Below are positions 2,950 to 59,969 of a stretch of DNA of 64,000 nucleotides, piece after piece. This stretch comes from an uncultured Candidatus Saccharibacteria bacterium (GTDB lineage: Bacteria; Patescibacteriota; Minisyncoccia; Phycocordibacterales; UBA2163): assembly GCA_964626705.1 (NCBI GenBank), contig CAZVGL010000001.1, positions 4,441 through 68,440 on the forward strand, given 5' to 3'. The notes under the pieces are model-generated. The model did no database searches, had not been told where the DNA came from, and saw only the letters and a program-made list of their open reading frames with translations. The position numbers and the translations under genes are program-made. Position 1 is the first letter of the stretch. Each line of letters begins with the position of its first letter.

Positions 2950-3984
2950 ATGAAAAAAGAGCTATCAGAATTAGACAAAAAAATACTCTACGAACTTGAC
3001 CAAGAAGGTCGCGAAAGCTTTGCCAGAATTGCCAAGACAATAGGCACCACCACACAAGTGGTTAAATATCATTACGATAAACTTATTGATAGCGGGGTTA
3101 TCAAGCACTTTTGGGCATTTGTTGACTATGATAAAGCAGGATATTCATTTTTCTGGGGATATTGGCTAAAATTCAGCGGACTCACAAAAGAAGCCGAAGA
3201 AGAAATGTATGCTGACTTCAAAACAAACGGGCATATACCCATAGTCATGCGTTGTGATGGATATGCTGATGCATTGCTAGGAATAATAGGTAAAGATATA
3301 TCTCATCATAATAAAGTCTTGGAGGACGTGTTCGCTAAGTATGGAAAATATATAACAATGAGCGACATTGTCGTTGGACTTGGCTTTATTAAGTTTCCAC
3401 GCTCATACTTGATTGGAAAAGAAAATAAAGTTGGCTCTTTTGTTGTTTCAGGTAGCACAGAAAAGATAAAAAATCTTTCCGAAGTAGATAAAAAGATAAT
3501 ATCTCTCTTGCAAGAAGACGGGAGGATGGATTTTACCCAAATCGCAAAGATTTTAGGAGTATCTGTAGGATTAGTACACAAACATTATTATAATCTAGTA
3601 GAAAAAGGTGTTATCACTAAAATCACATACACTCTTGATTATGAAAAAATCGGAATGGTTTTTTATAGAGTACTTTTCAAAATAATTCAGTATAATAAAG
3701 AAGAAATAGACCGTTTATACAAATTTTGTGAACTACATCCAAATATAATAAACTATGTTAAAGTTATGGGTGATTGGCAGTTAATACTTGATGTAGAAAT
3801 AGAAAGTCGTGACAAACTAAGAGACATGCTGAGGCAGATTAAAAACGATTTTAGAAGCATTGTTTATCAAATAGAAATTAACGAGATATACAAAATAGAT
3901 AAATTTACACAAATGGCTGTGGAGTATCCCGAACTAGGAAAACCCAAGCAACATACTTATCCAATACCAAACATAGAAAAATAA
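2950..3984 (+). CDS. Lrp/AsnC-family transcriptional regulator with tandem duplicated HTH plus AsnC-type domains
   Basis: Two internal repeats: LDKKILYELDQEGRESFARIAKTIGTTTQVVKYHYDKLIDSGVIK and VDKKIISLLQEDGRMDFTQIAKILGVSVGLVHKHYYNLVEKGVITK. Confidence 0.75.
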   Translation: MKKELSELDKKILYELDQEGRESFARIAKTIGTTTQVVKYHYDKLIDSGVIKHFWAFVDYDKAGYSFFWGYWLKFSGLTKEAEEEMYADFKTNGHIPIVMRCDGYADALLGIIGKDISHHNKVLEDVFAKYGKYITMSDIVVGLGFIKFPRSYLIGKENKVGSFVVSGSTEKIKNLSEVDKKIISLLQEDGRMDFTQIAKILGVSVGLVHKHYYNLVEKGVITKITYTLDYEKIGMVFYRVLFKIIQYNKEEIDRLYKFCELHPNIINYVKVMGDWQLILDVEIESRDKLRDMLRQIKNDFRSIVYQIEINEIYKIDKFTQMAVEYPELGKPKQHTYPIPNIEK

Positions 3985-3985
3985 C

Positions 3986-5254
3986 ATGGAAACTATACTA
4001 AACATAGGGAGGAAAATAATACCAAAGAGTGTTTTTAAAACAGCACAGCCTGTGTACCATTTTTTGCTTGCTTTAGCTGGTGCAATATATTATAAATTCC
4101 CTTCTAGAAAGGTTTTTGTTATAGCTGTGACTGGCACAAAAGGAAAGACAAGCGTAACAGAAATGATAAACGAAATATTAAGAGAAGCTGGTCACAAGAC
4201 AGCACTTCTAAATACTATTCATTTCAAGATCGGGGACAAAGAAGAAAGAAATTTATTTAAGATGACAATGCCAGGGCGGTTTTTCATACAGCGTTTTATA
4301 AGAGAAGCAGTAGATGCAAAATGTAAATATGTAGTAATGGAGATGACATCAGAAGGTGTAAAACAGTTCAGACACAAGTTTATAGCACTCGATGCGCTTA
4401 TATTTACAAACATAGCACCTGAGCACATAGAGTCACACGGTTCGTTTGAAAACTATTTAAATGCAAAATTAGAGATAGCACATGCTCTTGAGAGCTCTCC
4501 AAAGAAAAACAAAACTGTAATAGCAAACAATGACGACGAATACGGTGGGAAGTTTTTAAATATTAATGTACAAAATAAAATACCATTATCTCTTAAGAAT
4601 GCGGAGCCGTATATGCTATCTGAGAAGTTTACCGAAGTAACATTTGACGGAATAAAAATGCACTTAAAGCTTGTCGGGGAATTCAATATATACAACACAC
4701 TTTCCGCCATGTCTTTTGCAAAAAGCCAAGGTATAGACATATTAACAACACGTACTGCAATTGAAAAATTTATTGGTGCCAAAGGAAGAGTTGAGAGAGT
4801 GGAAGAAGGGCAAAACTTCACAGTGATAGTAGACTACGCACATACAAAAGAATCCCTAGAGGAACTATACAAAACATTTGATAAGTCTGACAAAGTTTGT
4901 GTATTAGGGAACACTGGTGGCGGTAGAGATAAATGGAAACGTCCAGAGATGGCAAGTATTGCGGAAAAGTATTGTAAGCATATTATCCTCACAAATGAAG
5001 ACCCTTATGACGAAGACCCTATGCAAATATTAAAAGAAATGGCGATAGGAATAAAAGACAAGAAGCCAGAAATAATACTAGACAGGAGGAAAGCTATAAA
5101 AAAAGCATTCACATTAGCTAAAGAAAACGATATAGTATTAATAACAGGAAAAGGTACGGACCCTTATATAATGGAAGCAAAAAGAAAGAAGACACCTTGG
5201 AGTGACGTAGAGGTGGCGCGTGAAGAATTAAATAAATACATTTTTAAATCTTAA
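3986..5254 (+). CDS. Mur ligase family protein (MurE/MurT-like ATP-dependent amide ligase)
   Basis: P-loop VTGTKGKTS followed by a Mur ligase central and C-terminal domain pattern; 422 aa. Exact substrate is not resolvable from sequence. Confidence 0.7.
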   Translation: METILNIGRKIIPKSVFKTAQPVYHFLLALAGAIYYKFPSRKVFVIAVTGTKGKTSVTEMINEILREAGHKTALLNTIHFKIGDKEERNLFKMTMPGRFFIQRFIREAVDAKCKYVVMEMTSEGVKQFRHKFIALDALIFTNIAPEHIESHGSFENYLNAKLEIAHALESSPKKNKTVIANNDDEYGGKFLNINVQNKIPLSLKNAEPYMLSEKFTEVTFDGIKMHLKLVGEFNIYNTLSAMSFAKSQGIDILTTRTAIEKFIGAKGRVERVEEGQNFTVIVDYAHTKESLEELYKTFDKSDKVCVLGNTGGGRDKWKRPEMASIAEKYCKHIILTNEDPYDEDPMQILKEMAIGIKDKKPEIILDRRKAIKKAFTLAKENDIVLITGKGTDPYIMEAKRKKTPWSDVEVAREELNKYIFKS

Positions 5255-5267
5255 ATATAATAAAATC

Positions 5268-6215
5268 ATGGGAGCAAAATCAGACTTAATATTTGTAATA
5301 CTTGTTATCGTAGCACTCGGTTTTGTGTGGGTGTTTACTGGAGGGCCTGAGCGTGCTCGCAACCAAGGAGTTTTTATAAAACCACCTGCTCCACTTGATT
5401 CTGGAGAAACATACGGAAAAATAAACGTGGTAAGATCTTCTGTTAATGTGGATCTTGACGGAAGTGGGAATGGAGGTGTACAAGTTGGTACGTCTGACGG
5501 AAACGGAAACAGTGGTGCTGAAGTTAATCCAAGCTCTTCAGAATTTGAAAACAAGGTAAGTATTAAAAGTAGCTCGACAGGACCTAGGAAAAGCTCTCCT
5601 TTGGAAGAATATATCACTTTGTCTGCATCAAGCAGGAACAATGAAAAGATTTCAATAACAGGATGGAAACTTGAAAGTATAATCTCAAAGAAACAAGCTA
5701 CAATAGGTGGCGCAACTGAAGTATATATATCAGGATTGGTAAACTCTGAACCTACACTCAAACTAGCACCAGGTGAAACCGTAATAATATCGACAGGGCT
5801 CTCTCCTATCGGTGCATCTTTTAAAGTCAACAAATGTAGTGGTTACCAAGAACAGTTCCAAGACTTCTTCCCCAAATTATCCAAAAAGTGCCCCTACCCA
5901 GACGACGAGTTTGACGATATCGCTTTAAGTATCCCCTCAACAGACAATAAATGCGAAGATTTTGTAGACAGTATTAGCAGATGTGAGATGGAGCTTACAG
6001 CCTTCCCTGCCGGCGTATCAAGTCAGTGTACTGAATTTGTTTCAAACACTATAAACTATTCAGGTTGTGTTAAAAACCATAGAGATGACCTAAACTTTTT
6101 TACAAAAGAGTGGAGAGTCTTTCTAAAGAAAGATAGTGAACTCTGGAGAGCAAAACGCGAAACCATAAGACTTATAGATAACGACGGCAAAGTCGTTGAT
6201 ACGTATACGTATTAA
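5268..6215 (+). CDS. secreted, membrane-anchored protein with a lamin-tail-domain-like segment
   Basis: N-terminal TM helix. Segment EEYITLSASS...ISITGWKLES...LKLAPGETVIISTG resembles the LTD pattern. C-terminal half is Cys-rich. Confidence 0.5.
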   Translation: MGAKSDLIFVILVIVALGFVWVFTGGPERARNQGVFIKPPAPLDSGETYGKINVVRSSVNVDLDGSGNGGVQVGTSDGNGNSGAEVNPSSSEFENKVSIKSSSTGPRKSSPLEEYITLSASSRNNEKISITGWKLESIISKKQATIGGATEVYISGLVNSEPTLKLAPGETVIISTGLSPIGASFKVNKCSGYQEQFQDFFPKLSKKCPYPDDEFDDIALSIPSTDNKCEDFVDSISRCEMELTAFPAGVSSQCTEFVSNTINYSGCVKNHRDDLNFFTKEWRVFLKKDSELWRAKRETIRLIDNDGKVVDTYTY

Positions 6216-9163: not shown

Positions 9164-9880
9164 TTATATCCCCAAGATAAACCTCTCCATTGCACTATCC
9201 ATCTCATGTACACCACGACGAGTATCGTGATAAAGAGATATTAGAGAAAAAGAAAGCTTTCTAAGCTCACTTTCTGAATAATTTTTTACAAATCCTAGAG
9301 ACTTTCTAAATACAAACGGATTAAGCCCAGACTCTTTAGCGTCTTTTGTATTGAGCGATAGCAACATACTTTTAACCTGCCAAAACAGTATGCCGTGTAC
9401 TTCTTCATCAGAAACATTGTTCATCTTCGCTTTTTGATACAAGACCCAAAGATTTTTCTTATCTCTCTTCCCCAAGGCTTCTGTTAAAGAAAAGATATCA
9501 AACTTTTTCTTTTTTTCTATTTCAACACCGACAAATTCCTGAATCTTCTCGGCATATTTTTCAAATTTATTTAATTCTGTTTTGTTTAACTTTTCTTCTA
9601 AGAAAATAAAGATATTTTCAGACTTTGAAATCTCTTTCAAACTTTTTAACAAAACTTCTTTTACTTTTTTATCTAAAAACAGATTATCGAAAACTATTAT
9701 ATATTTATTTGTAAAAAGTCCTTGCCCTCCTACGAATTCGTCTAACCTACTCTCATCAAACTCTCCTGCCTCTACACGTACAAACGATGCGTCTGGTTTT
9801 TTTGCAAACATACTACCCAAAAGTGAGTGTAGTTTTTCCCTAGATTTTATTATATCTGTACCGTGGAGAAGATATATCAT
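9164..9880 (-). CDS. holA: DNA polymerase III subunit delta
   Basis: MIYLLHGTD... N-terminus typical of delta subunits. The start at 9880 forms an ATGA overlap with the polA stop; the track ORF extends to 9901. Confidence 0.65.
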   Translation of the reverse strand: MIYLLHGTDIIKSREKLHSLLGSMFAKKPDASFVRVEAGEFDESRLDEFVGGQGLFTNKYIIVFDNLFLDKKVKEVLLKSLKEISKSENIFIFLEEKLNKTELNKFEKYAEKIQEFVGVEIEKKKKFDIFSLTEALGKRDKKNLWVLYQKAKMNNVSDEEVHGILFWQVKSMLLSLNTKDAKESGLNPFVFRKSLGFVKNYSESELRKLSFSLISLYHDTRRGVHEMDSAMERFILGI

Positions 9881-12264
9881 ATTTTTTTCATCTCTCCCCA
9901 ATTATCCCCCACTGATACATCAACCAAAAGCTCTATGTCGTAAATATCTTTTGGATCTATCACTGATTCCATTATTTTTTTAATTTCTTTTGAGATCTCT
10001 TCTACTTTTTTATCTTTGATCTCATATACAAGTTCGTCATGTACCTGAAGTAAAAGCTGTGCGTCTTTTGAGAGTCCCTGCTTCTCAAGATAGCTATCGA
10101 TACGCGCCATAGCTATCTTTATAATATCTGACTGTGTACCCTGAATAGGCGCATTTATAGCCATCCTCTCTGCCATAGCCCTGACGAATGGTATATTAGA
10201 ATTAATCCCCTCAAAGTGCCGTTTTCGGCCAAAATACGTCTCTGTATAACCAAGACGCGCTGCATCTAGCTTTATTTCATGCATATAATGCGCAAGTCCT
10301 GAGAATATTTTGAAGTATTCGTTAAGATACTTTTGTGCCTCTGCACGTGTAGTCTTAAGATTCTCTTTAAGCGCACTTACACCCATGCCATATTGGATAC
10401 CAAAGTTGATAACTTTTGCTTCTCTTCTCATCTCATCATCTACCATATCTATAGGCACATCAAAAACCTCCGATGCAACTTTCGCATGAATATCTCCACC
10501 TGTCTTAAAGTTTTCTATAAGCTTCTCGTCACGAGATAAAAATGCAGCAACACGAAGTTCTATCTGAGAATAATCAAGTGCTACTAATTTATACCCCTTG
10601 CTCGCAACAAATGCATTACGAATATTCCTACCAAGCTCTGTGCGAACAGGTATGTTCTGCAAATTCGGATTCTGAGACGACATCCTTCCCGTTGTCGTAC
10701 CTGTCTGTATGAACTTAGCGTGCAAACGATTATCTTTGTCTAGAAGCTGTGGGATATTATCTATATAAGTAGACAAAAGTTTTTGCAACTCCCTATATGA
10801 AAAGATCTCACTGATGATAGGGTGCATATCCCTCATCTTTTCTAGCTCAGACTCACGAGTAGAACGAGCACCTGAGCCTGTTTTCTTTTGGTTTTTCGGC
10901 TTAAGCTCTAACTTATCAAAAAGCACGACACCTAATTGCTTCGGGGAGTTAATATTAAACTCTTCACCTGCATGTTTATAGATCTTATCCTCAAGTTTAG
11001 ATAAATTTTTATGATAATCTTTCGAAAGTTTTTTTAAATAAACAGCATCGACAACAATACCTCTTTCTTCCATCTTTTCTATCACAGGTATGATAGGTAG
11101 CTCTATATCATTTAAAACTTTTTCTAACTTTTGCTTTTTTATTTCTGTAAATATATACTTATGCGCTTCTTTAAAAGATTTAGTGTCTGCAAACTGCAAA
11201 ATATCCTCAAGTGTTGGGTTTGTAGTGTCAGAATGCAAAAGCCAAAGAGCTATACCAACCTTTTTAATATCGTCATCTGAAACTTCTTCTTTTTCAACCT
11301 CTTCTTCAGGCTCTGCTTCTTCTAAGATATTAGCTCCCCCACCAAATGCCTCTCGCACTCTCTGTGACAAAGTTCTAAACCCAAGTTCTTGAAACAATTT
11401 AAATATCCCATCAACCTCGAGTGCATCTCTCCACTTTTCCTCTGGTATCTTAAAATCTATAGGTACATCAAGACGTATTGTCGCAAGCATTTTAGAAAAC
11501 AATGCTTCTTCTTCATTTTCCTCTAAAATACCTACGATTCGTGGCTTTATACCAGCTTCTTCAAATTTCTCTTTGCTCTTTTTGAGAGCCTTGTACATCT
11601 CTTCAATAGTGCCAAACTTTTGTATTAAAATAGTTGCAGTTTTCTCGCCGATTCCTGCAATCCCAGGGATATTGTCAGACGGATCACCGCGAAGCCCTTT
11701 GTAATCTGTCAAAAGCTTTGGACCAAAACCAAATCTTTCTTCAACACCTTTTTCATCATATAGTACAACTTCTTTAATCCCTTTCTTCTGTGTGTAAACA
11801 CGCACGCGCTTGTTGTCCACGAGCTGGAGTGTATCCATATCGCCAGATGCGATAATCACATCAATATCTTTTTTACCTTTTACCTGATGTGCAATAGTGC
11901 CGAGTACGTCATCGGCTTCAAACCCAGCTTTTTCATAAATAGGAATATTAAAAACTTCAAAAATATCTCGCGAACGGTTAATTTGGGCAATAAGGTCATC
12001 GTGTGTTTTTGCACGCCCTGCTTTATAGTCTTCATAGACCTCATGCCTGTATGTCGGCTCCGGCAAGTCATAACACGCTACCAAATAGTCCGGCTTCAGA
12101 TCGTCAATGATTTTCATAAGCATTGCTGACACTCCATAGAGCGCGCCAGTGGGCTCACCCTTATCCGATGTAAAATCCGGCAATGCATGGTACGCCCTGT
12201 GCAATATCGCATGTGCATCAAGGAGTACTAACCTCTTTTTCTCACTTTTTCCACCTTTAGTCAT
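9877..12264 (-). CDS. polA: DNA polymerase I
   Basis: 795 aa. 5'-3' exonuclease N-terminal domain (LVLLDAHAILHRAYHAL...) and polymerase motifs (RREAKVINFGIQYGM, QVHDELV). Confidence 0.95.
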   Translation of the reverse strand: MTKGGKSEKKRLVLLDAHAILHRAYHALPDFTSDKGEPTGALYGVSAMLMKIIDDLKPDYLVACYDLPEPTYRHEVYEDYKAGRAKTHDDLIAQINRSRDIFEVFNIPIYEKAGFEADDVLGTIAHQVKGKKDIDVIIASGDMDTLQLVDNKRVRVYTQKKGIKEVVLYDEKGVEERFGFGPKLLTDYKGLRGDPSDNIPGIAGIGEKTATILIQKFGTIEEMYKALKKSKEKFEEAGIKPRIVGILEENEEEALFSKMLATIRLDVPIDFKIPEEKWRDALEVDGIFKLFQELGFRTLSQRVREAFGGGANILEEAEPEEEVEKEEVSDDDIKKVGIALWLLHSDTTNPTLEDILQFADTKSFKEAHKYIFTEIKKQKLEKVLNDIELPIIPVIEKMEERGIVVDAVYLKKLSKDYHKNLSKLEDKIYKHAGEEFNINSPKQLGVVLFDKLELKPKNQKKTGSGARSTRESELEKMRDMHPIISEIFSYRELQKLLSTYIDNIPQLLDKDNRLHAKFIQTGTTTGRMSSQNPNLQNIPVRTELGRNIRNAFVASKGYKLVALDYSQIELRVAAFLSRDEKLIENFKTGGDIHAKVASEVFDVPIDMVDDEMRREAKVINFGIQYGMGVSALKENLKTTRAEAQKYLNEYFKIFSGLAHYMHEIKLDAARLGYTETYFGRKRHFEGINSNIPFVRAMAERMAINAPIQGTQSDIIKIAMARIDSYLEKQGLSKDAQLLLQVHDELVYEIKDKKVEEISKEIKKIMESVIDPKDIYDIELLVDVSVGDNWGEMKKI

Positions 12265-12310
12265 ACTCCAATTTTACCATATATTTTAGTAAAAAATTTT
12301 ACAAAAAAAG

Positions 12311-12347
12311 AAGGAGCTGAAAACTAATAAATTAGTCCAGCTCCTTT
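12311..12347 (-). terminator. hairpin terminator downstream of the 12380..12805 gene
   Basis: AAGGAGCTG...CAGCTCCTT stem-loop in the intergenic region before the polA promoter. Confidence 0.5.
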
Positions 12348-12379: not shown

Positions 12380-12805
12380 TTACTTCTTTGCATCTGCAAC
12401 CAAACCTTGAGCTTTTTTGAGAAGATCTGACATCTTCTTCTCAATTTCAGCCTGCATCTTCTCAAGCTCAGAAATACTCTCATCAACTTTTTTTATTCCA
12501 TTTTCGAGCATTACTTTTAATTTAGTGTTATCTGTTGTATCAGCGATACCTTGAAATTTTGCCTTTTGTAATTCAGTAGCCATGATTAGACCAACAACTT
12601 TCTGAAGTTCTTTTGACAGTTGATCCGATTCATTCTTAATTTCAAACAACTCCATCTTAAGCAAGATATTGTCTGTCAGTTGGATAAGCACACTTTCCAT
12701 AGTTTTTGACTTCTGCTCATCTTGCGCAAACGAATTAGCAGAGAAAGAAATAGTAACAACAATCAGTAATGCAACAAAGGTAGGTATAATTTTCGCAAAT
12801 TTCAT
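12380..12805 (-). CDS. secreted coiled-coil protein (signal peptide)
   Basis: 141 aa, MKFAKIIPTFVALLIVVTISFSANSFAQDE... It shares its start codon context, signal-peptide-like 5' end and about 220-bp upstream leader with the two duplicated genes upstream. Confidence 0.55.
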   Translation of the reverse strand: MKFAKIIPTFVALLIVVTISFSANSFAQDEQKSKTMESVLIQLTDNILLKMELFEIKNESDQLSKELQKVVGLIMATELQKAKFQGIADTTDNTKLKVMLENGIKKVDESISELEKMQAEIEKKMSDLLKKAQGLVADAKK

Positions 12806-13023
12806 TTTCGGTCTCCTTTCAAGAGATGAAAATTAAAAAGATAATATTTAATGTACAAAACAATACACTTGTATCGTACTTATATATTAGCATACTTATA
12901 TATGTTTGTCAAGGGTTAATTTTACCCTTACTCTAAGCTAGATTTGGATGCAAAAAAAAGGCCCGGCATATAAATATAACATGCTCGGACCCCGTCTTTC
13001 TTGAAACTGCGAACTTACTTTAA

Positions 13024-13467
13024 CTATTCGCACATATTTACTAAATCCCCTGAAGTAAACTCAACACCAGCAATCTTTACTTCATCCAGATTAATGACCG
13101 CATAATCACCATCTATTGTGGCTCCATTACTAACCATCGCAGACCTGCTTATTTCAGTAGTATCGCCGTATACTTTGACCCTTGCTTTAACAACAAACTT
13201 CATAAGTTCTGCATTAAGCGCTATTTTTGCAACCATTATTCCAAATTTTTCGCTACCATTATTTAATGCTGTAAATTGTGCAACTTTTGTACGAAGCAAT
13301 ATTTTACCATCATCACTTGATACAAATTCATAATTAAGGACGTATTCGTTTCTTACTCCAGGAACCGTATAAGCCAAAAGTCGCTTTTCTGCAAATGAAT
13401 CAGCAGAGAAAGAAGCGGTAACAACAAATAGCAACATAGCAATAACGACAAGATTTCGGATTTTCAT
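13024..13467 (-). CDS. secreted hypothetical protein, duplicate copy 1
   Basis: 147 aa, MKIRNLVVIAMLLFVVTASFSADSFAEKRL... with a signal peptide. An AGGAG ribosome-binding site precedes it (gaaaggagaccgaaaATG). Confidence 0.6.
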   Translation of the reverse strand: MKIRNLVVIAMLLFVVTASFSADSFAEKRLLAYTVPGVRNEYVLNYEFVSSDDGKILLRTKVAQFTALNNGSEKFGIMVAKIALNAELMKFVVKARVKVYGDTTEISRSAMVSNGATIDGDYAVINLDEVKIAGVEFTSGDLVNMCE

Positions 13468-13545
13468 TTTCGGTCTCCTTTCAAGAGATGAAAATTAAAA
13501 AGATAATATTTAATGTACAAAACAATACACTTGTATCGTACTTAT

Positions 13546-13574
13546 ATATTAGCATACTTATATATGTTTGTCAA
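13546..13574 (-). promoter_or_regulatory. sigma70-like promoter TTGACA-N17-TAATAT (minus strand)
   Basis: Equivalent copies lie at 12884-12912 (for the 12380 gene) and 14208-14236 (for copy 2). Each leader also carries the motif TCTAGCTTAGA just upstream of the -35 box, although that motif is absent from the diverged third leader. Confidence 0.5.
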
Positions 13575-13685
13575 GGGTTAATTTTACCCTTACTCTAAGC
13601 TAGATTTGGATGCAAAAAAAAGGCCCGGCATATAAATATAACATGCTCGGACCCCGTCTTTCTTGAAACTGCGAACTTACTTTAA

Positions 13686-14129
13686 CTATTCGCACATATT
13701 TACTAAATCCCCTGAAGTAAACTCAACACCAGCAATCTTTACTTCATCCAGATTAATGACCGCATAATCACCATCTATTGTGGCTCCATTACTAACCATC
13801 GCAGACCTGCTTATTTCAGTAGTATCGCCGTATACTTTGACCCTTGCTTTAACAACAAACTTCATAAGTTCTGCATTAAGCGCTATTTTTGCAACCATTA
13901 TTCCAAATTTTTCGCTACCATTATTTAATGCTGTAAATTGTGCAACTTTTGTACGAAGCAATATTTTACCATCATCACTTGATACAAATTCATAATTAAG
14001 GACGTATTCGTTTCTTACTCCAGGAACCGTATAAGCCAAAAGTCGCTTTTCTGCAAATGAATCAGCAGAGAAAGAAGCGGTAACAACAAATAGCAACATA
14101 GCAATAACGACAAGATTTCGGATTTTCAT
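13686..14129 (-). CDS. secreted hypothetical protein, duplicate copy 2 (100% identical)
   Basis: Identical 147-aa product; part of the tandem duplication. Confidence 0.6.
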   Translation of the reverse strand: MKIRNLVVIAMLLFVVTASFSADSFAEKRLLAYTVPGVRNEYVLNYEFVSSDDGKILLRTKVAQFTALNNGSEKFGIMVAKIALNAELMKFVVKARVKVYGDTTEISRSAMVSNGATIDGDYAVINLDEVKIAGVEFTSGDLVNMCE

Positions 14130-14240
14130 TTTCGGTCCCCTTTCAAGAGATGAAAATTAAAAAAGTAATATGTAATGTACAAAACAATACACTTGTATCG
14201 TGCTTATATATTAGCATATTTAGATGCGTTTGTCAAGTAC

Positions 14241-14699
14241 CTATTTGACTTCAATCTCTCTTGTGTTTTCGTCTATGAATTTGAAGTACATTTCTTGTTT
14301 ATCGTCTGGTAAGACATCTTTTACATTATCAGGCCACTCTATAAATATAATGTTTTTAGGGTTTTTAGAGACTTCTTCCCAACCTAAAGTCTTTAACTCT
14401 TCCCCGCTCTTAAGCCTATATGCGTCAATATGGATCAGATTATCAAAATCTTGATTCTCTAGTTTATAAATCTTTTCAATAACAAATGTCGGACTTGTAA
14501 CAGTGTTCTCTATACCAAACTCTTTTGCCACCATTTTTACAAAAGTTGTTTTACCAGAACCCAAGTCACCATGCATCGCCACCACAAAGGCTAAGCCTTT
14601 GTGAGGTTTGATGTTTTCTACAAACTCTTTTGCTATTTTTCCTGTTTCTTCTATGCTTTTAGATATCATACACACTACTTTATCATTTTTTAGACGCAA
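14241..14699 (-). CDS. tsaE: tRNA threonylcarbamoyladenosine biosynthesis protein TsaE
   Basis: P-loop GDLGSGKTTFVK and YjeE-like conservation. The real start is probably the Met at 14669. Confidence 0.85.
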   Translation of the reverse strand: MRLKNDKVVCMISKSIEETGKIAKEFVENIKPHKGLAFVVAMHGDLGSGKTTFVKMVAKEFGIENTVTSPTFVIEKIYKLENQDFDNLIHIDAYRLKSGEELKTLGWEEVSKNPKNIIFIEWPDNVKDVLPDDKQEMYFKFIDENTREIEVK

Positions 14700-14706
14700 A
14701 TAAAGG

Positions 14707-14745
14707 GGAAATCAAAATGACTTTCCCCTTTTTTTAATTACCGAA
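14707..14745. terminator. bidirectional hairpin terminator
   Basis: AGGGGAAA tcaaaatgac TTTCCCCT flanked by A- and T-runs, between the lipoprotein gene and tsaE. Confidence 0.5.
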
Positions 14746-15318
14746 ACCTCGATAGCCTGTAGTACCCCAATAACCAACATTGAAGTTACTCTCTCTATCG
14801 TATCTCCTAGACCTTCTACGTCTGCTATCTCCCCAACCCCAATCACCGCCAAGATATCTAATTCTTCTTCCAGAATATACATTTTGGAAGTAAATCATCC
14901 TTCTTCTCGATGGCCAGTATTGCCCTCTGTTAATGTTGACTTGAACATTAGCATTACCAAGAGAAAAGGTAGTTTTTCCACATCCACCATTGCAGCTACT
15001 TTTTCCGCAACTATCGCAAGATGGTGTGTATTCTACTACAGAAGATCTTGTTTCTGAAGCAGAACCATAGAAGTTACTGCTGTCCACTACTATTGGACTT
15101 ACAGCTCTTCTTTTACATCTACTCCCCCCATGCAGTCCACGCTCTCTATCACCATAATAAAGATTGTGAACCGGACAATGAAACTTGTCACTTGGACGCT
15201 TCATATAGCTTCCAAGACTAGGAGCGGTGACGGTGGAGCGCGTTGTTGCGCATCCACTAAATACTCCGATCAGGAGCATTATAGATATTATTGTCATTAT
15301 CAGTTTTTTAACTTTCAT
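14734..15318 (-). CDS. Cys-rich, Arg/Gly-rich lipoprotein
   Basis: Signal peptide with lipobox (IGVFSGC). Cys clusters and an RRRRSRRYDR tail. GC content is higher than the surroundings. Confidence 0.55.
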   Translation of the reverse strand: MKVKKLIMTIISIMLLIGVFSGCATTRSTVTAPSLGSYMKRPSDKFHCPVHNLYYGDRERGLHGGSRCKRRAVSPIVVDSSNFYGSASETRSSVVEYTPSCDSCGKSSCNGGCGKTTFSLGNANVQVNINRGQYWPSRRRMIYFQNVYSGRRIRYLGGDWGWGDSRRRRSRRYDRESNFNVGYWGTTGYRGFGN

Positions 15319-15391
15319 GACATCCTCACTTTCTCGATCTCCTGATCGAAATAATATTTTAAATTATAAAACAACTACTTTTCTTAGCCCT

Positions 15392-15419
15392 ATTGTAGCA
15401 TATACACCGTATTTGTCAA
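15392..15419 (-). promoter_or_regulatory. sigma70-like promoter TTGACA-N16-TACAAT for the lipoprotein gene
   Basis: Minus strand reads TTGACAaatacggtgtatatgcTACAAT. Confidence 0.45.
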
Positions 15420-15563
15420 GGGTTTATACCCCATCCACACATCTACCCAACATCCTTGATTTTTGCCAAAAACCACGTATTCTAAAAAGTGGAGAGAGGA
15501 GCGACTCTTTGACAAGTAAAAGGTAGTAGATTTCTTTTCTAATTTCTAACAATTTAATTTGGA

Positions 15564-16190
15564 TTGGAGGTAGTTATGAAAAACAGATTTATTATATTAA
15601 TCGCGTGTTTCGCAATGCTCTGCAGTATTGTGATTACACAATCGCAGGAAACGTTTGCCGAGAAAACGAAATCGGCAAGTCATGACGTACATTTCTTTAC
15701 ACAAGGCTCTGATGGAGCAAATGATCTGCAGTCGTTTAAGTACGACAAGAAAGAAAACGGTGTGTCACACAACAATTGGCCGGAATATGGTATCGAAGGT
15801 GAGAGCAAACAGCGAAACGTTGATGAGAGCAATGTAGCTTACGATAAGGCGATTGATCCTGGATATAAACAAGCCGCTATTGGAAGATGTCCGACCCGGG
15901 CTGAATACGGAACACTGGCCGCTATCGTCACACCCACATATTATAAAGCAGGGGTGTTGGCAATTACACAGGAACAGAAACCGATTAATGAAGGCGATGT
16001 GTTGAAGATAAGAGCAGCCATACTGAATGCAGAAATTATGGCCATGTCAAACTCAGGAGGTGCCGGTAAGTACCAGGATTTCCATGGACTCACACTGGAA
16101 AATGTTGAGCTATCAGCGAATGATCTGAAGATTAACAACAATGAAAAGTTTGCCGTAACAAAAAAAGTGAAAGTCTCAAGACAGGTTTAA
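15564..16190 (+). CDS. secreted hypothetical protein with atypical (high-GC) composition
   Basis: 208 aa with an N-terminal signal peptide and a GGAGG ribosome-binding site. Hand-counted GC is about 42-50% against roughly 33-38% for neighbouring genes. Codons ending in G or C (ccg, gcg, ctg) are frequent. Confidence 0.6.
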   Translation: MEVVMKNRFIILIACFAMLCSIVITQSQETFAEKTKSASHDVHFFTQGSDGANDLQSFKYDKKENGVSHNNWPEYGIEGESKQRNVDESNVAYDKAIDPGYKQAAIGRCPTRAEYGTLAAIVTPTYYKAGVLAITQEQKPINEGDVLKIRAAILNAEIMAMSNSGGAGKYQDFHGLTLENVELSANDLKINNNEKFAVTKKVKVSRQV

Positions 16191-50079: not shown

Positions 50080-50300
50080 ATTTTTAGTATATATTATATA
50101 AATAAATAGTCAATAATTTTGATGATAAGTCATATAAAAGTGTAAATAATGGCTTATTTAAAGGGGGTACTAGGTACTTTTTAGTCATTAAATTAGACAC
50201 TAGACTTGACTTTTTAAACTCATCATGTATAATGTAGGCAGAATCATAAATTAAATAATTATCATTTCTTTTACACTTTTCTCTTGAAAGGAGAATTATT

Positions 50301-50777
50301 ATGAAAAAGATTTTATTGATCGAAGATAGCCAGCACCATGTAGACTCTGCAAAGAAATTTTTTGCAGACAAAGATGTGGAACTAAAAATAGTTTGTAATT
50401 TTGATGGGTTTCTTGGAGAACTTAGAAACTTACGTGCAAACTATGACGGCATCTTGTCAGACATCTTCATACCATATGATGATGAGCAGTTCACAGAGGA
50501 AGTTCCTGCAGGGGTTGGGATTTTCTCAATATGTTCTGCTAGAGCGATTCCCTGCATTCTTGTTACAGCAGGACATCATCACGGTCAGAAATACCATTGG
50601 ATAGGATCTATGGTAACCCGTCTTGTTGGAGATGGTCGGCATGTACTTGTTGACACTAAAAAGAGTGGACATTATCTGGGCGACAAGGAGCTGGATGAAG
50701 ATTCTCCAGAGAAAAACTGGAGTCGCGCATACGAGAGTCTTTTGAAAGAGATCTCTCGAATCCCAGTCACAGGATGA
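50301..50777 (+). CDS. stand-alone CheY-like receiver (REC) domain protein, possibly atypical
   Basis: MKKILLIEDS..., GILSDIFIPY (phospho-acceptor Asp context) and ILVTAGHHH (T/A position). No output domain. Confidence 0.4.
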   Translation: MKKILLIEDSQHHVDSAKKFFADKDVELKIVCNFDGFLGELRNLRANYDGILSDIFIPYDDEQFTEEVPAGVGIFSICSARAIPCILVTAGHHHGQKYHWIGSMVTRLVGDGRHVLVDTKKSGHYLGDKELDEDSPEKNWSRAYESLLKEISRIPVTG

Positions 50778-51103
50778 TGAGATATCTTATATTTTATAAT
50801 AATTTTCTAAGGAGAAAAAAGTGAAGTAGACCAGAAAAAAAGTCCCCCTGGGCGAAGGCGTACAAACGTCTCGGCAACATAAAGCACACGCTATTTGTAG
50901 AGATAAGGTCTCTTAAAAAACCTTTCTGTATTGAGATGTGTATCTCAACTGATGATTCCGAAAGGATGAAACAGAATGCTCCCTGTTTGCTCAAGAGCAT
51001 AGCGATTGATTTGCAAACAGCAGTCCTGTTAAAGGTTCCCGATAGTTCTTTAAATTTAAAATTAAATATTTCTTTTAACTTTTCTCTTGAAAGGAGAATT
51101 GGA

Positions 51104-58205: not shown

Positions 58206-59969
58206 ATGAGTAAAAATATTTTTAAAAAAATAATATCCAGTATTCTAACAATCGCAATTTTTGCAATAAGTATTTTTGGTACTTTTAATATTAGTATTAC
58301 AGTTGCCGCAACAAAACCACCAAGGACTCAAGGATTGCCAGGATCAGGGACAAGTGGTAATCGTAATGAAATCATGACAGGGGCTGAAGGGGTAAATGCT
58401 GTTGGGGTAAATACAGCAACTGTGGTAGTTGATCAAGATGTTGTAGGTATGTTGTCACCAGTTGATAAATTAATTGATCAAGATGTTGTAGGTATGTTGT
58501 CACCAGTTGATAAATTAATTGATCAAGATGCTATAGGTATGTTGTCAGCAAATGATGCACAGATAAGTCAAGTAAAAAACAAAACAGCAGGGATTTTAAG
58601 TTCAAACCCTTTTGGAAACAGTATGGTTCCTACAGATGATGTAAAAGATAATTACAAAGAAAGGGTACAAGATTCTATTTGGTCACTTATGGCAAAAAGA
58701 GCTATAAGGATGATCACTACAAGTACTGTAAACTGGATAAATAATGGTTTTCAGGGTGGTCCAGCATATGTAACAGATCTTAACGGTTTTCTTCTTGATG
58801 TTGCAGATGATCAGACTAGTATCTTCATAGAGCGTCTAGGGCTTACAGATCTATGTAGTCCTTGGAAGTTAGACATACGAATTGCATTAGCAATGAGACA
58901 GGCAGCACCGTTTGACAGAGAAATCGCATGTACCCTCTCTGACATTGTGGCAAATATGGATGATTTTATAAATGGAGATTTCTCTCAAGGTGGATGGGCA
59001 GGGTGGTTTGAACTTACTACAAAACCACAAAATAACCCTTATGGACTTTATCTTATGACAGCATCTGAGCTTGACCAAAGGATAGCGGGTACACAACAGC
59101 GACAGACACAAATCCTTGATTGGGGTGATGGATTTCTTTCGTATGAAGAATGTGAAGACTTACCCGAAGGGTTTGGGGGACCACCGCGTTGTGAAATAGT
59201 AACACCGGGGACTGTTATTGAAAATCAATTAGACCATGTTTTGGGTACTGGTGTAAGGCAGTTAGAGCTTGCGGATGAATTTAATGAAGTAATAAATGCT
59301 TTAATGCAACAGCTTGTGGTACAAGTATTTACTGGAGTAGATGGATTGAGGGGTGTAAGTAGAAGTTATGGAGGTAACCCATCGTATACAAACCGTCTTT
59401 CAGCTACTGAAGATAATACTACGATAGGAAATGTCATAGCAAGTTCAGAGCTTGAGTTTGGAAGGGTGTTAAATGAAGAGTTAGTTTACCTGACAGCCAA
59501 AGACGGCTCACTTAAGAGTATTGAGGCGGCAGAAAACAGACTTTCTAGCTTGGTCGCATGTTACGACAATAAACTCGCGGATATCAGTTTGAATTTAACT
59601 ATTAGTGAAAAAACAATAGCTCTTGAGAGGAGAAACAGTGCCTCTTCTACTATAGATACACTCATCACACCGCGTAAGAATATTCTTATCACAGAAATAG
59701 ATTTTTCAAGTAGGGTTATATTGAAATTAGATTCATTGTTAACTAATATGCAAAACGCAACAAATCCAATTCAGCTTCAAGTACCTACAAGTGAGTTAGA
59801 AAGTATGCGCAGACAGGATATTCTAAGAGGTCCATATATATTTTCTGCAGAGCAGGAAAGGGTGGGATTGTTGAGCGAGATGAATGCACTTAACCAAGAT
59901 ACTGAGAATAAAATTACAGAATGTCAGGTATTCCCGCTGCTACCGCAGGGGCAACAGCAGAATCCATAA
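58206..59969 (+). CDS. large secreted hypothetical protein with internal 15-aa tandem repeats
   Basis: N-terminal TM/signal helix. DQDVVGMLSPVDKLI repeated. Q-rich C-terminus. Confidence 0.5.
   Translation: MSKNIFKKIISSILTIAIFAISIFGTFNISITVAATKPPRTQGLPGSGTSGNRNEIMTGAEGVNAVGVNTATVVVDQDVVGMLSPVDKLIDQDVVGMLSPVDKLIDQDAIGMLSANDAQISQVKNKTAGILSSNPFGNSMVPTDDVKDNYKERVQDSIWSLMAKRAIRMITTSTVNWINNGFQGGPAYVTDLNGFLLDVADDQTSIFIERLGLTDLCSPWKLDIRIALAMRQAAPFDREIACTLSDIVANMDDFINGDFSQGGWAGWFELTTKPQNNPYGLYLMTASELDQRIAGTQQRQTQILDWGDGFLSYEECEDLPEGFGGPPRCEIVTPGTVIENQLDHVLGTGVRQLELADEFNEVINALMQQLVVQVFTGVDGLRGVSRSYGGNPSYTNRLSATEDNTTIGNVIASSELEFGRVLNEELVYLTAKDGSLKSIEAAENRLSSLVACYDNKLADISLNLTISEKTIALERRNSASSTIDTLITPRKNILITEIDFSSRVILKLDSLLTNMQNATNPIQLQVPTSELESMRRQDILRGPYIFSAEQERVGLLSEMNALNQDTENKITECQVFPLLPQGQQQNP
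58431..58556 (+). repeat. 45-bp in-frame tandem repeat, about 2.8 copies
   Basis: gatcaagatgttgtaggtatgttgtcaccagttgataaattaatt appears twice, followed by a diverged partial copy. Confidence 0.85.

Follow-up and report, generated by a model that had tools for sequence, protein, structure and literature searches.

Between the housekeeping genes tsaE and polA of an uncultivated bacterium, two identical copies of a small gene lie head-to-tail, and the question is how they came to be there and whether the genome really holds both. The locus is located in a 64-kb window (the whole stretch of DNA that was analysed, from contig CAZVGL010000001.1) of what appears from its sequence to be a Paceibacteria-like member of the candidate phyla radiation (CPR). 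The repeated gene encodes a 147-amino-acid (147-aa) protein with a putative signal peptide and is followed by a 141-aa gene with the same leader. The tandem duplication is real, perfect and very recent. With good confidence, it can be ascribed to a recent duplication within a lineage-restricted gene pair, mediated by the repeated leaders of the two genes. It would thus be a gene duplication caught at time zero in an uncultivated CPR bacterium, with the parental and the duplicated form both present in public assemblies and the breakpoint resolved to 14 bp.

Base-by-base comparison at an offset of 662 showed that positions 12800–13475 equal positions 13462–14137, i.e. 676 bp with a period of 662 and with 0 mismatches and 0 indels. 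Because the repeat is perfect, the duplication must be very recent. The minus strand carries, from 5' to 3', tsaE, leader L3, 147-aa copy B, leader L2, 147-aa copy A, leader L1, the 141-aa gene and polA:

14241–14699, minus strand: tsaE, the upstream housekeeping flank of the islet (Pfam TsaE, E = 6e-34)
14130–14237, minus strand: leader L3 with promoter TTGACA-17-TAATAT (14236–14208), 5' untranslated region (UTR) and ribosome-binding site GGGGACC
13686–14129, minus strand: 147-aa gene, copy B (upstream copy), an open reading frame (ORF) identical to copy A, with a putative Sec-type signal peptide
13614–13654, minus strand: predicted intrinsic terminator after copy B, same sequence as 12952–12992, with its A8 run on the plus strand
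13468–13582, minus strand: leader L2 with promoter (13574–13546), 5' UTR and ribosome-binding site GGAGACC
13024–13467, minus strand: 147-aa gene, copy A (downstream copy), an ORF
12952–12992, minus strand: predicted intrinsic terminator after copy A (RNA fold), 13-pair stem GGGGUCCG.GCAUAU, then U8
12806–12920, minus strand: leader L1 with promoter (12912–12884) and two predicted hairpins
12800–14137, no strand: perfect tandem repeat in its full extent, two 662-bp units plus the 14-bp overlap GACCGAAAATGAAA
12380–12805, minus strand: 141-aa gene (ORF, homologues), signal peptide followed by a predicted coiled coil
12303–12346, minus strand: predicted intrinsic terminator after the 141-aa gene (RNA fold, z = -2.8), hairpin and U-tract
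9877–12264, minus strand: polA, the downstream housekeeping flank (Pfam domains)

The 662-bp unit is composed of 218 bp of intergenic DNA and a 444-bp ORF, and it contains the 147-aa gene, its terminator and an L1-type leader. Both 147-aa ORFs (13024–13467 and 13686–14129, minus strand) are identical. Tandem Repeats Finder returned nothing at the locus; its longest period of 500 is too short for the 662-bp unit. A preliminary description of this DNA had reported two identical head-to-tail copies, which the 676-bp identity bears out, together with a single-A difference between them in a homopolymer. The latter is absent, since the repeat is free of mismatches and indels; the A/G differences in the A-run set L3 apart from L1 and L2 and are two substitutions without an indel. 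The very recent date proposed there was likewise met with agreement, both in the perfect repeat and in single-copy assemblies that are 100% identical to the window minus one unit.

An exact-sequence look-up of the 147-aa protein led to contigs from ten samples. Two copies were found in JGI 3300037809 and in ENA ERZ4231636 and ERZ4201049, and one copy in JGI 3300037838, 3300037876 and 3300072015 and in ENA ERZ4199535. The contigs fall into the following forms:

L001, L003 and L004: two full copies, 100% identical to the window over 10–12 kb
L009: junction crossed, the contig covering tsaE, copy B and L2 and reaching into a second 147-aa gene
L002 and L006: junction at the contig start, beginning in an L1-type leader that is followed by the 147-aa gene
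L005, L007 and L008: one copy, equal to the window minus one unit (13462–14123), with 0 mismatches over 1.8–7.8 kb
JGI 3300072015: one copy on a fourth contig, from the gene table only

The junction specific for the duplication is an L1-type leader in front of a 147-aa gene, where the L1-type A in GGAGACC is joined to the 147-aa-specific ATGAAAATCC. It reads GGAGACCGAAAATGAAAATCC, compared to GGGGACCGAAAATGAAAATCC where L3 is joined to the 147-aa gene and GGAGACCGAAAATGAAATTTG where L1 is joined to the 141-aa gene, and it is missing from the one-copy form. At least six contigs of JGI and ENA assemblies, each assembled separately, contain the junction; "independent" assemblies are in this sense ones that were assembled separately, not ones from separate populations. 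The one-copy contigs may be a true second form or collapsed repeats, and both explain them equally well. Copy-number differences among the contigs of this population may thus have technical causes, dose variation by copy number is possible, and the true copy number could exceed two.

L1, upstream of the 141-aa gene, and L2 are 100% identical. L3 is 92% identical to both over 108 nt, with the similarity beginning exactly at the -35 hexamer, and corresponds to the diverged third leader copy that had been noticed upstream. L3 and L1 differ at nine sites, and L2 has the L1 base at all nine. Each of the three leaders contains TTGACA-N17-TAATAT, as had been described, and in each the motif is extended by TG. 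The strong ribosome-binding site gaaaggagaccgaaaATG is present as well, with GGGG in place of GGAG in L3, and the predicted 5' UTR measures roughly 72–75 nt from the predicted -10 box to the ATG. Transcripts would accordingly start near 12877, 13539 and 14201. Each 147-aa gene is followed by a G+C-rich hairpin with a U8 tract and the 141-aa gene by a hairpin with a U-tract, in agreement with the downstream terminators previously proposed; a simple pattern-based terminator scanner missed them owing to bulges. The 141-aa gene also shares the end of the signal-peptide coding region with the 147-aa gene (44 nt at 82% identity) and then diverges, just as had been stated. The anatomy of the cassette (promoter, ribosome-binding site, signal peptide, terminator) was therefore correctly described, and judging by these predicted elements each gene is self-contained, with a near-consensus sigma-70 promoter, a 5' UTR, a ribosome-binding site, a signal peptide and an intrinsic terminator of its own.

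The first mismatch of the repeat falls exactly at the difference between L3 and L1 that lies 9 nt upstream of the ATG; thus, the breakpoint is inside the 14 bp GACCGAAAATGAAA, which are common to all three leaders. L2 is L1-type upstream of GACCGAAAATGAAA and consists of 147-aa-specific sequence downstream of it. Since it has the L1 base at nine sites and then turns 147-aa-specific, the exchange was resolved in these 14 bp.

From this, the following course of events may be proposed. The ancestral state would have been a lineage-restricted pair of monocistronic genes for exported proteins (147 aa and 141 aa) between tsaE and polA, whose paralogous leaders formed direct repeats that gene conversion kept similar. 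The paralogous leaders would then have undergone an unequal exchange between sister chromosomes, or a slip in replication, which was resolved in GACCGAAAATGAAA and yielded the 662-bp tandem duplication of 147-aa gene, terminator and L1-type leader. Two identical, independently transcribed 147-aa copies should roughly double the output, and the same homology could undo or extend the duplication. Transcription, export, the dosage effect and the route of recombination are here deduced rather than observed.

In bacteria, genes are classically duplicated and amplified in tandem when flanking direct repeats recombine unequally. The locus shares with such cases the identical head-to-tail units, a breakpoint in pre-existing homology and a one-copy form that differs by exactly one unit, and reversibility and a change in dosage are to be expected in both. 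It differs in its flanking repeats, which are the genes' own promoter, UTR and signal-peptide modules instead of insertion sequences (IS elements) or ribosomal RNA (rRNA) operons, in the resolved homology of only 14 bp and in a unit of one small gene (662 bp). The mechanism is ordinary and not new, so that the value of the case is mostly local.

Several points weigh against a leader-mediated duplication within a pair of exported-protein genes as proposed here. The leaders contain longer identical runs of 25 and 29 nt; a RecA-type crossover would more often be resolved in these and would leave a hybrid L2, but L2 is purely L1-type. Because the expected hybrid leader is not seen, slippage at short homology, or an exchange followed by later conversion, appears somewhat more likely than a simple RecA crossover. 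Expression, cleavage and export of the proteins are predicted from the sequence, and the signal peptide was called by eye. A hairpin is predicted over the ribosome-binding site of L1 (12804–12833), in which AGGAGA pairs with UCUCUU, and it is weak in this genome: the hairpin alone has -7.5 kcal/mol and z = -0.8, and the whole UTR folds with a predicted z of -2.05. The copy number (two or more) and any variation of it within the population are judged from assemblies and not from reads, and all samples may belong to one or two studies of a single site.

With orthologues and a confidently predicted core, the 147-aa ORF is a real gene. By eye, its signal peptide is composed of MKIR / NLVVIAMLLFVVTA / SFSADSFA with S at -3 and A at -1, and the same signal-peptidase-I pattern of a basic start, a hydrophobic core and small residues at -3 and -1 is seen in the 141-aa protein and in the orthologues. 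A lipobox cysteine was sought and not found, as the signal peptides end in ...SFSADSFA|EK and ...SFSANSFA|QD. Beyond the shared LL.VVT.SFSA.SFA, the two proteins have little in common in a protein comparison: their mature parts gave only a gapped BLASTP alignment with 26% identity (28.5 bits, pairwise E = 1e-5), the shared signal-peptide end included.

Among 15 billion proteins, the very narrow 147-aa family forms three clusters when these are drawn at 50% identity. When 1.84 billion cluster representatives were scanned exhaustively with HMMER, the 147-aa protein had only a 146-aa relative (55% identity), a 141-aa relative (42%) and one fragment, and in a word-indexed search neither it nor the 141-aa protein matched anything but itself among 5.8 billion proteins. 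The 147-aa protein had no Pfam or NCBIfam match at the curated cut-off and no sequence or fold match in the PDB. Its structure was predicted with AlphaFold2 (AF2), as had been suggested. With a single sequence, the predicted local distance difference test (pLDDT) score was 36; a four-sequence alignment gave a usable model with a pLDDT of 73 overall and about 80–90 over the mature part. The model suggests an alpha/beta fold with a weak structural resemblance to the GyrI-like / SOUL haem-binding fold, but fold searches assigned no fold to it. The 141-aa protein is named "F0F1-type ATP synthase membrane subunit b/b'" by JGI. This function was rejected, given that no such Pfam family was matched at E ≤ 1, all listed matches were below their cut-offs and the gene lies between tsaE and polA; a hydrophobic start followed by a long helix probably gave rise to the name. 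Both proteins are nearly without relatives, which is common for proteins in CPR bacteria. A role at the cell surface or towards a host may be supposed for them.

The same spacer was compared in related contigs (polA identity to the window in brackets):

L018–L021 (81% for L018): a 146-aa orthologue, then a 126-aa coiled-coil gene; polA is incomplete in L019 and L021
L023 (85%): only a 142-aa coiled-coil homologue
L015, L016 and L025 (86–87%): nothing, tsaE abuts polA
L017 (84%): a gap of 100 N directly behind tsaE-TTGACAAA
L024 (85%): about 190 nt of unrelated inserted sequence

The 146-aa orthologue in L018 is 55% identical to the 147-aa protein. The two genes of L018 share their promoter (27/29) and the signal-peptide end (93%), and their UTRs differ. 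As L018 has the pair while other relatives have one gene or none, the pair predates this species, and genes are gained and lost at the site. Between the two gene types, the 5' modules are more alike within a genome than between genomes, which argues for gene conversion. The ongoing conversion that had been considered as a cause of the high identity is thus supported: the paralogous leaders evolve in concert. On the evidence of these sequences, the tsaE–polA spacer is a small variable islet for presumably exported proteins almost without relatives, and these are candidates for functions at the cell surface or in host contact in organisms with reduced genomes. The gap in L017 (about 5820–5920) is a 100-N scaffold gap and suggests that the same arrangement of repeated leaders defeats assembly there too.

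A locus programmed for variation, i.e. a phase- or copy-number-variable surface-protein locus for antigenic or adhesive switching, is the alternative that survives best, and it is still improbable. A conserved promoter, UTR and signal peptide do stand before unrelated mature proteins, one- and two-copy forms occur on an otherwise identical background and the content of the site varies among related species between 0, 1 and 2 genes. Moreover, the organism is likely an episymbiont to which surface proteins are important, as follows from CPR biology. In Mycoplasma, the variable lipoprotein families Vlp and Vsp are marked by a promoter homopolymer and by conservation of the 5' region. Like here, the genes are clustered, and nearly the same promoter, UTR and signal peptide precede mature regions that diverge. 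However, their switch (poly-A in the promoter spacer or site-specific inversion) and their lipoprotein signal were sought at this locus and not found. Promoter spacer, UTR and 5' coding region are free of simple-sequence repeats, and no inverted repeats bracket the promoter, which speaks against the phase variation that had been suspected. The only homopolymer runs of at least 7 are the terminator U8 tracts and a T7 at 12488–12494, well inside the 141-aa coding region, and no unit of 2–7 nt is repeated four or more times. Inverted repeats are at chance level only (10–19 nt) with none flanking the promoter, no recombinase gene is nearby and neither signal peptide has a lipobox.

In Borrelia burgdorferi, the upstream homology box (UHB) genes ospE, ospF and elp (Erp) are a further parallel (Marconi et al. 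1996, J Bacteriol 178:5615, as listed among the references of PMC10016077). As at this locus, unrelated exported proteins have a common upstream promoter region and leader peptide, and recombination between the shared 5' modules yields variation. The Erp proteins are lipoproteins encoded in many copies on cp32 prophage plasmids, whereas the genes described here are chromosomal, without a lipobox and of two types. The shared 5' module as such is evident, with leaders 92–100% identical and the signal-peptide end 82% identical. The surface-protein family that had been pictured is not supported if many paralogues are meant by it: the window has two gene types, both for proteins almost without relatives, and the 64 kb hold no further copy of the leader save a partial 3' module. 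In addition, the one-copy contigs that would attest variation may be mere collapse. Recent duplication within the gene pair is preferred.

Full leaders in the 64-kb window are thus limited to these three, and the partial 3' module is found at two other genes. The leader's 3' portion of about 45 nt, with TTTTCTCTTGAAAGGAGA at its end, recurs at 50247–50300 and 51061–51103 on the plus strand. The genes behind these sites, at 50301 (158 aa) and 51104 (101 aa), are unrelated, small and without a Pfam match. A further sequence of the 3' module is TCTCTTGAAAGGRGA. With at most one mismatch, CTCTTGAAAGGAG occurs six times in the window compared to 0.1 expected; one site of the module, at 59620–59632, has no usable start codon behind it. 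When a 20-mer of the leader was scanned against collections of genome and metagenome contigs that do not include this genome, only chance matches in unrelated DNA were obtained.

The last 43 nt of L3 (window 14127–14169, minus strand), which take in the first three codons of the 147-aa gene, are identical (43/43) to the leader of the coiled-coil gene in L023 (3444–3486), while the flanking genes of the window and L023 are about 75% identical. This suggests a strong constraint on the translation-start region or a recent exchange of 5' modules between the gene types. These 43 nt comprise a U-rich tract, a predicted UCUCUU-GAA-AGGRGA hairpin over the ribosome-binding site and the first codons. 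Given their identity across species with flanks of about 75% and the related module before two unrelated genes, they might be a lineage-specific element of translational control, and/or the leader repeats might be built-in recombination sites for copy number; both are speculative and rather unlikely. If true, the leader repeats would enable a bacterium of the episymbiont type to adjust the number of copies of an exported protein upwards and downwards within its population. A covariance model of the ribosome-binding-site hairpin was dropped, because the seven sequences were too alike and the hairpin of the 126-aa gene in L018 was out of register. A second, 5'-terminal hairpin (GUACGAUACAA...UUGUUUUGUAC) is predicted in all three leaders (12853–12879, 13515–13541 and 14177–14203, minus strand). 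The leaders of the relatives L018 and L023 are without it, so that it appears to be a species-specific insertion into the UTR.

Much less credible is a mobile cassette that an integron-like system, or another site-specific one, would have placed into the tsaE–polA spacer as its target. It would account for the patchy presence of genes at this site among relatives with polA 80–87% identical, and a different insert of about 190 nt with inverted ends lies in the same spacer of L024. That insert (about 3796–4000) has 22-nt inverted-repeat ends (TTAAGGAGCATAGTGACTATAA / TTATAGTCACAAAGCTCCTTAA) and internal G+C-rich palindromes and looks like a miniature mobile element or a structured RNA. However, neither the islet nor its immediate surroundings contain an integrase, a transposase or an attC-like site, every gene comes with a promoter and a terminator of its own, unlike integron cassettes, and the G+C content of the islet is the same as that of its flanks. 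The window and L018 agree in gene order and position, which is consistent with vertical descent and gene losses. A viral origin was rejected, as scans against viral contigs were negative.

It is equally hard to credit that the genome holds a single copy and that the assembler looped falsely through the similar leaders. Assembly is difficult where a perfect repeat exceeds the read length, four assemblies have one copy and coverage according to the contig names is merely 2–6x, being lowest (2.3x) for the one-copy contig with a named coverage. Furthermore, the scaffold L002 has a break of 100 N within the repeat, and the piece to the right of this break starts at the junction. Nevertheless, an invention by the assembler is unlikely because the junction needs sequence that the one-copy form lacks, while L3 and L1 share only 14 identical bases there. 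A de Bruijn graph with k above 15 cannot create such a junction. It was seen in no fewer than six JGI and ENA contigs, and assemblers usually collapse such repeats and seldom expand them. The warning of mis-assembly in the preliminary description was reasonable, but as the origin of the duplication mis-assembly is unlikely in view of these separate assemblies.

The islet has tsaE, polA and holA as neighbours. The closest named relatives of polA are 81% and 79% identical and annotated as Candidatus Pacebacteria/Paceibacteria, and matches from unnamed metagenomes reach up to 87% identity. Rfam returned only tRNAs for the whole window and, at a permissive threshold, nothing but sub-threshold chance matches for the region, none of them inside the leader. 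Between pilB and tsaE (14734–16190), two further genes without a family match are located: one on the minus strand for a 194-aa protein that is rich in Cys, Arg and Gly and has a lipobox-like FSGC, and one on the plus strand for a 208-aa protein with a putative signal peptide. Relatives hold different small genes between pilB and tsaE; since this interval also varies among them, the variable islet reaches beyond the tandem duplication.

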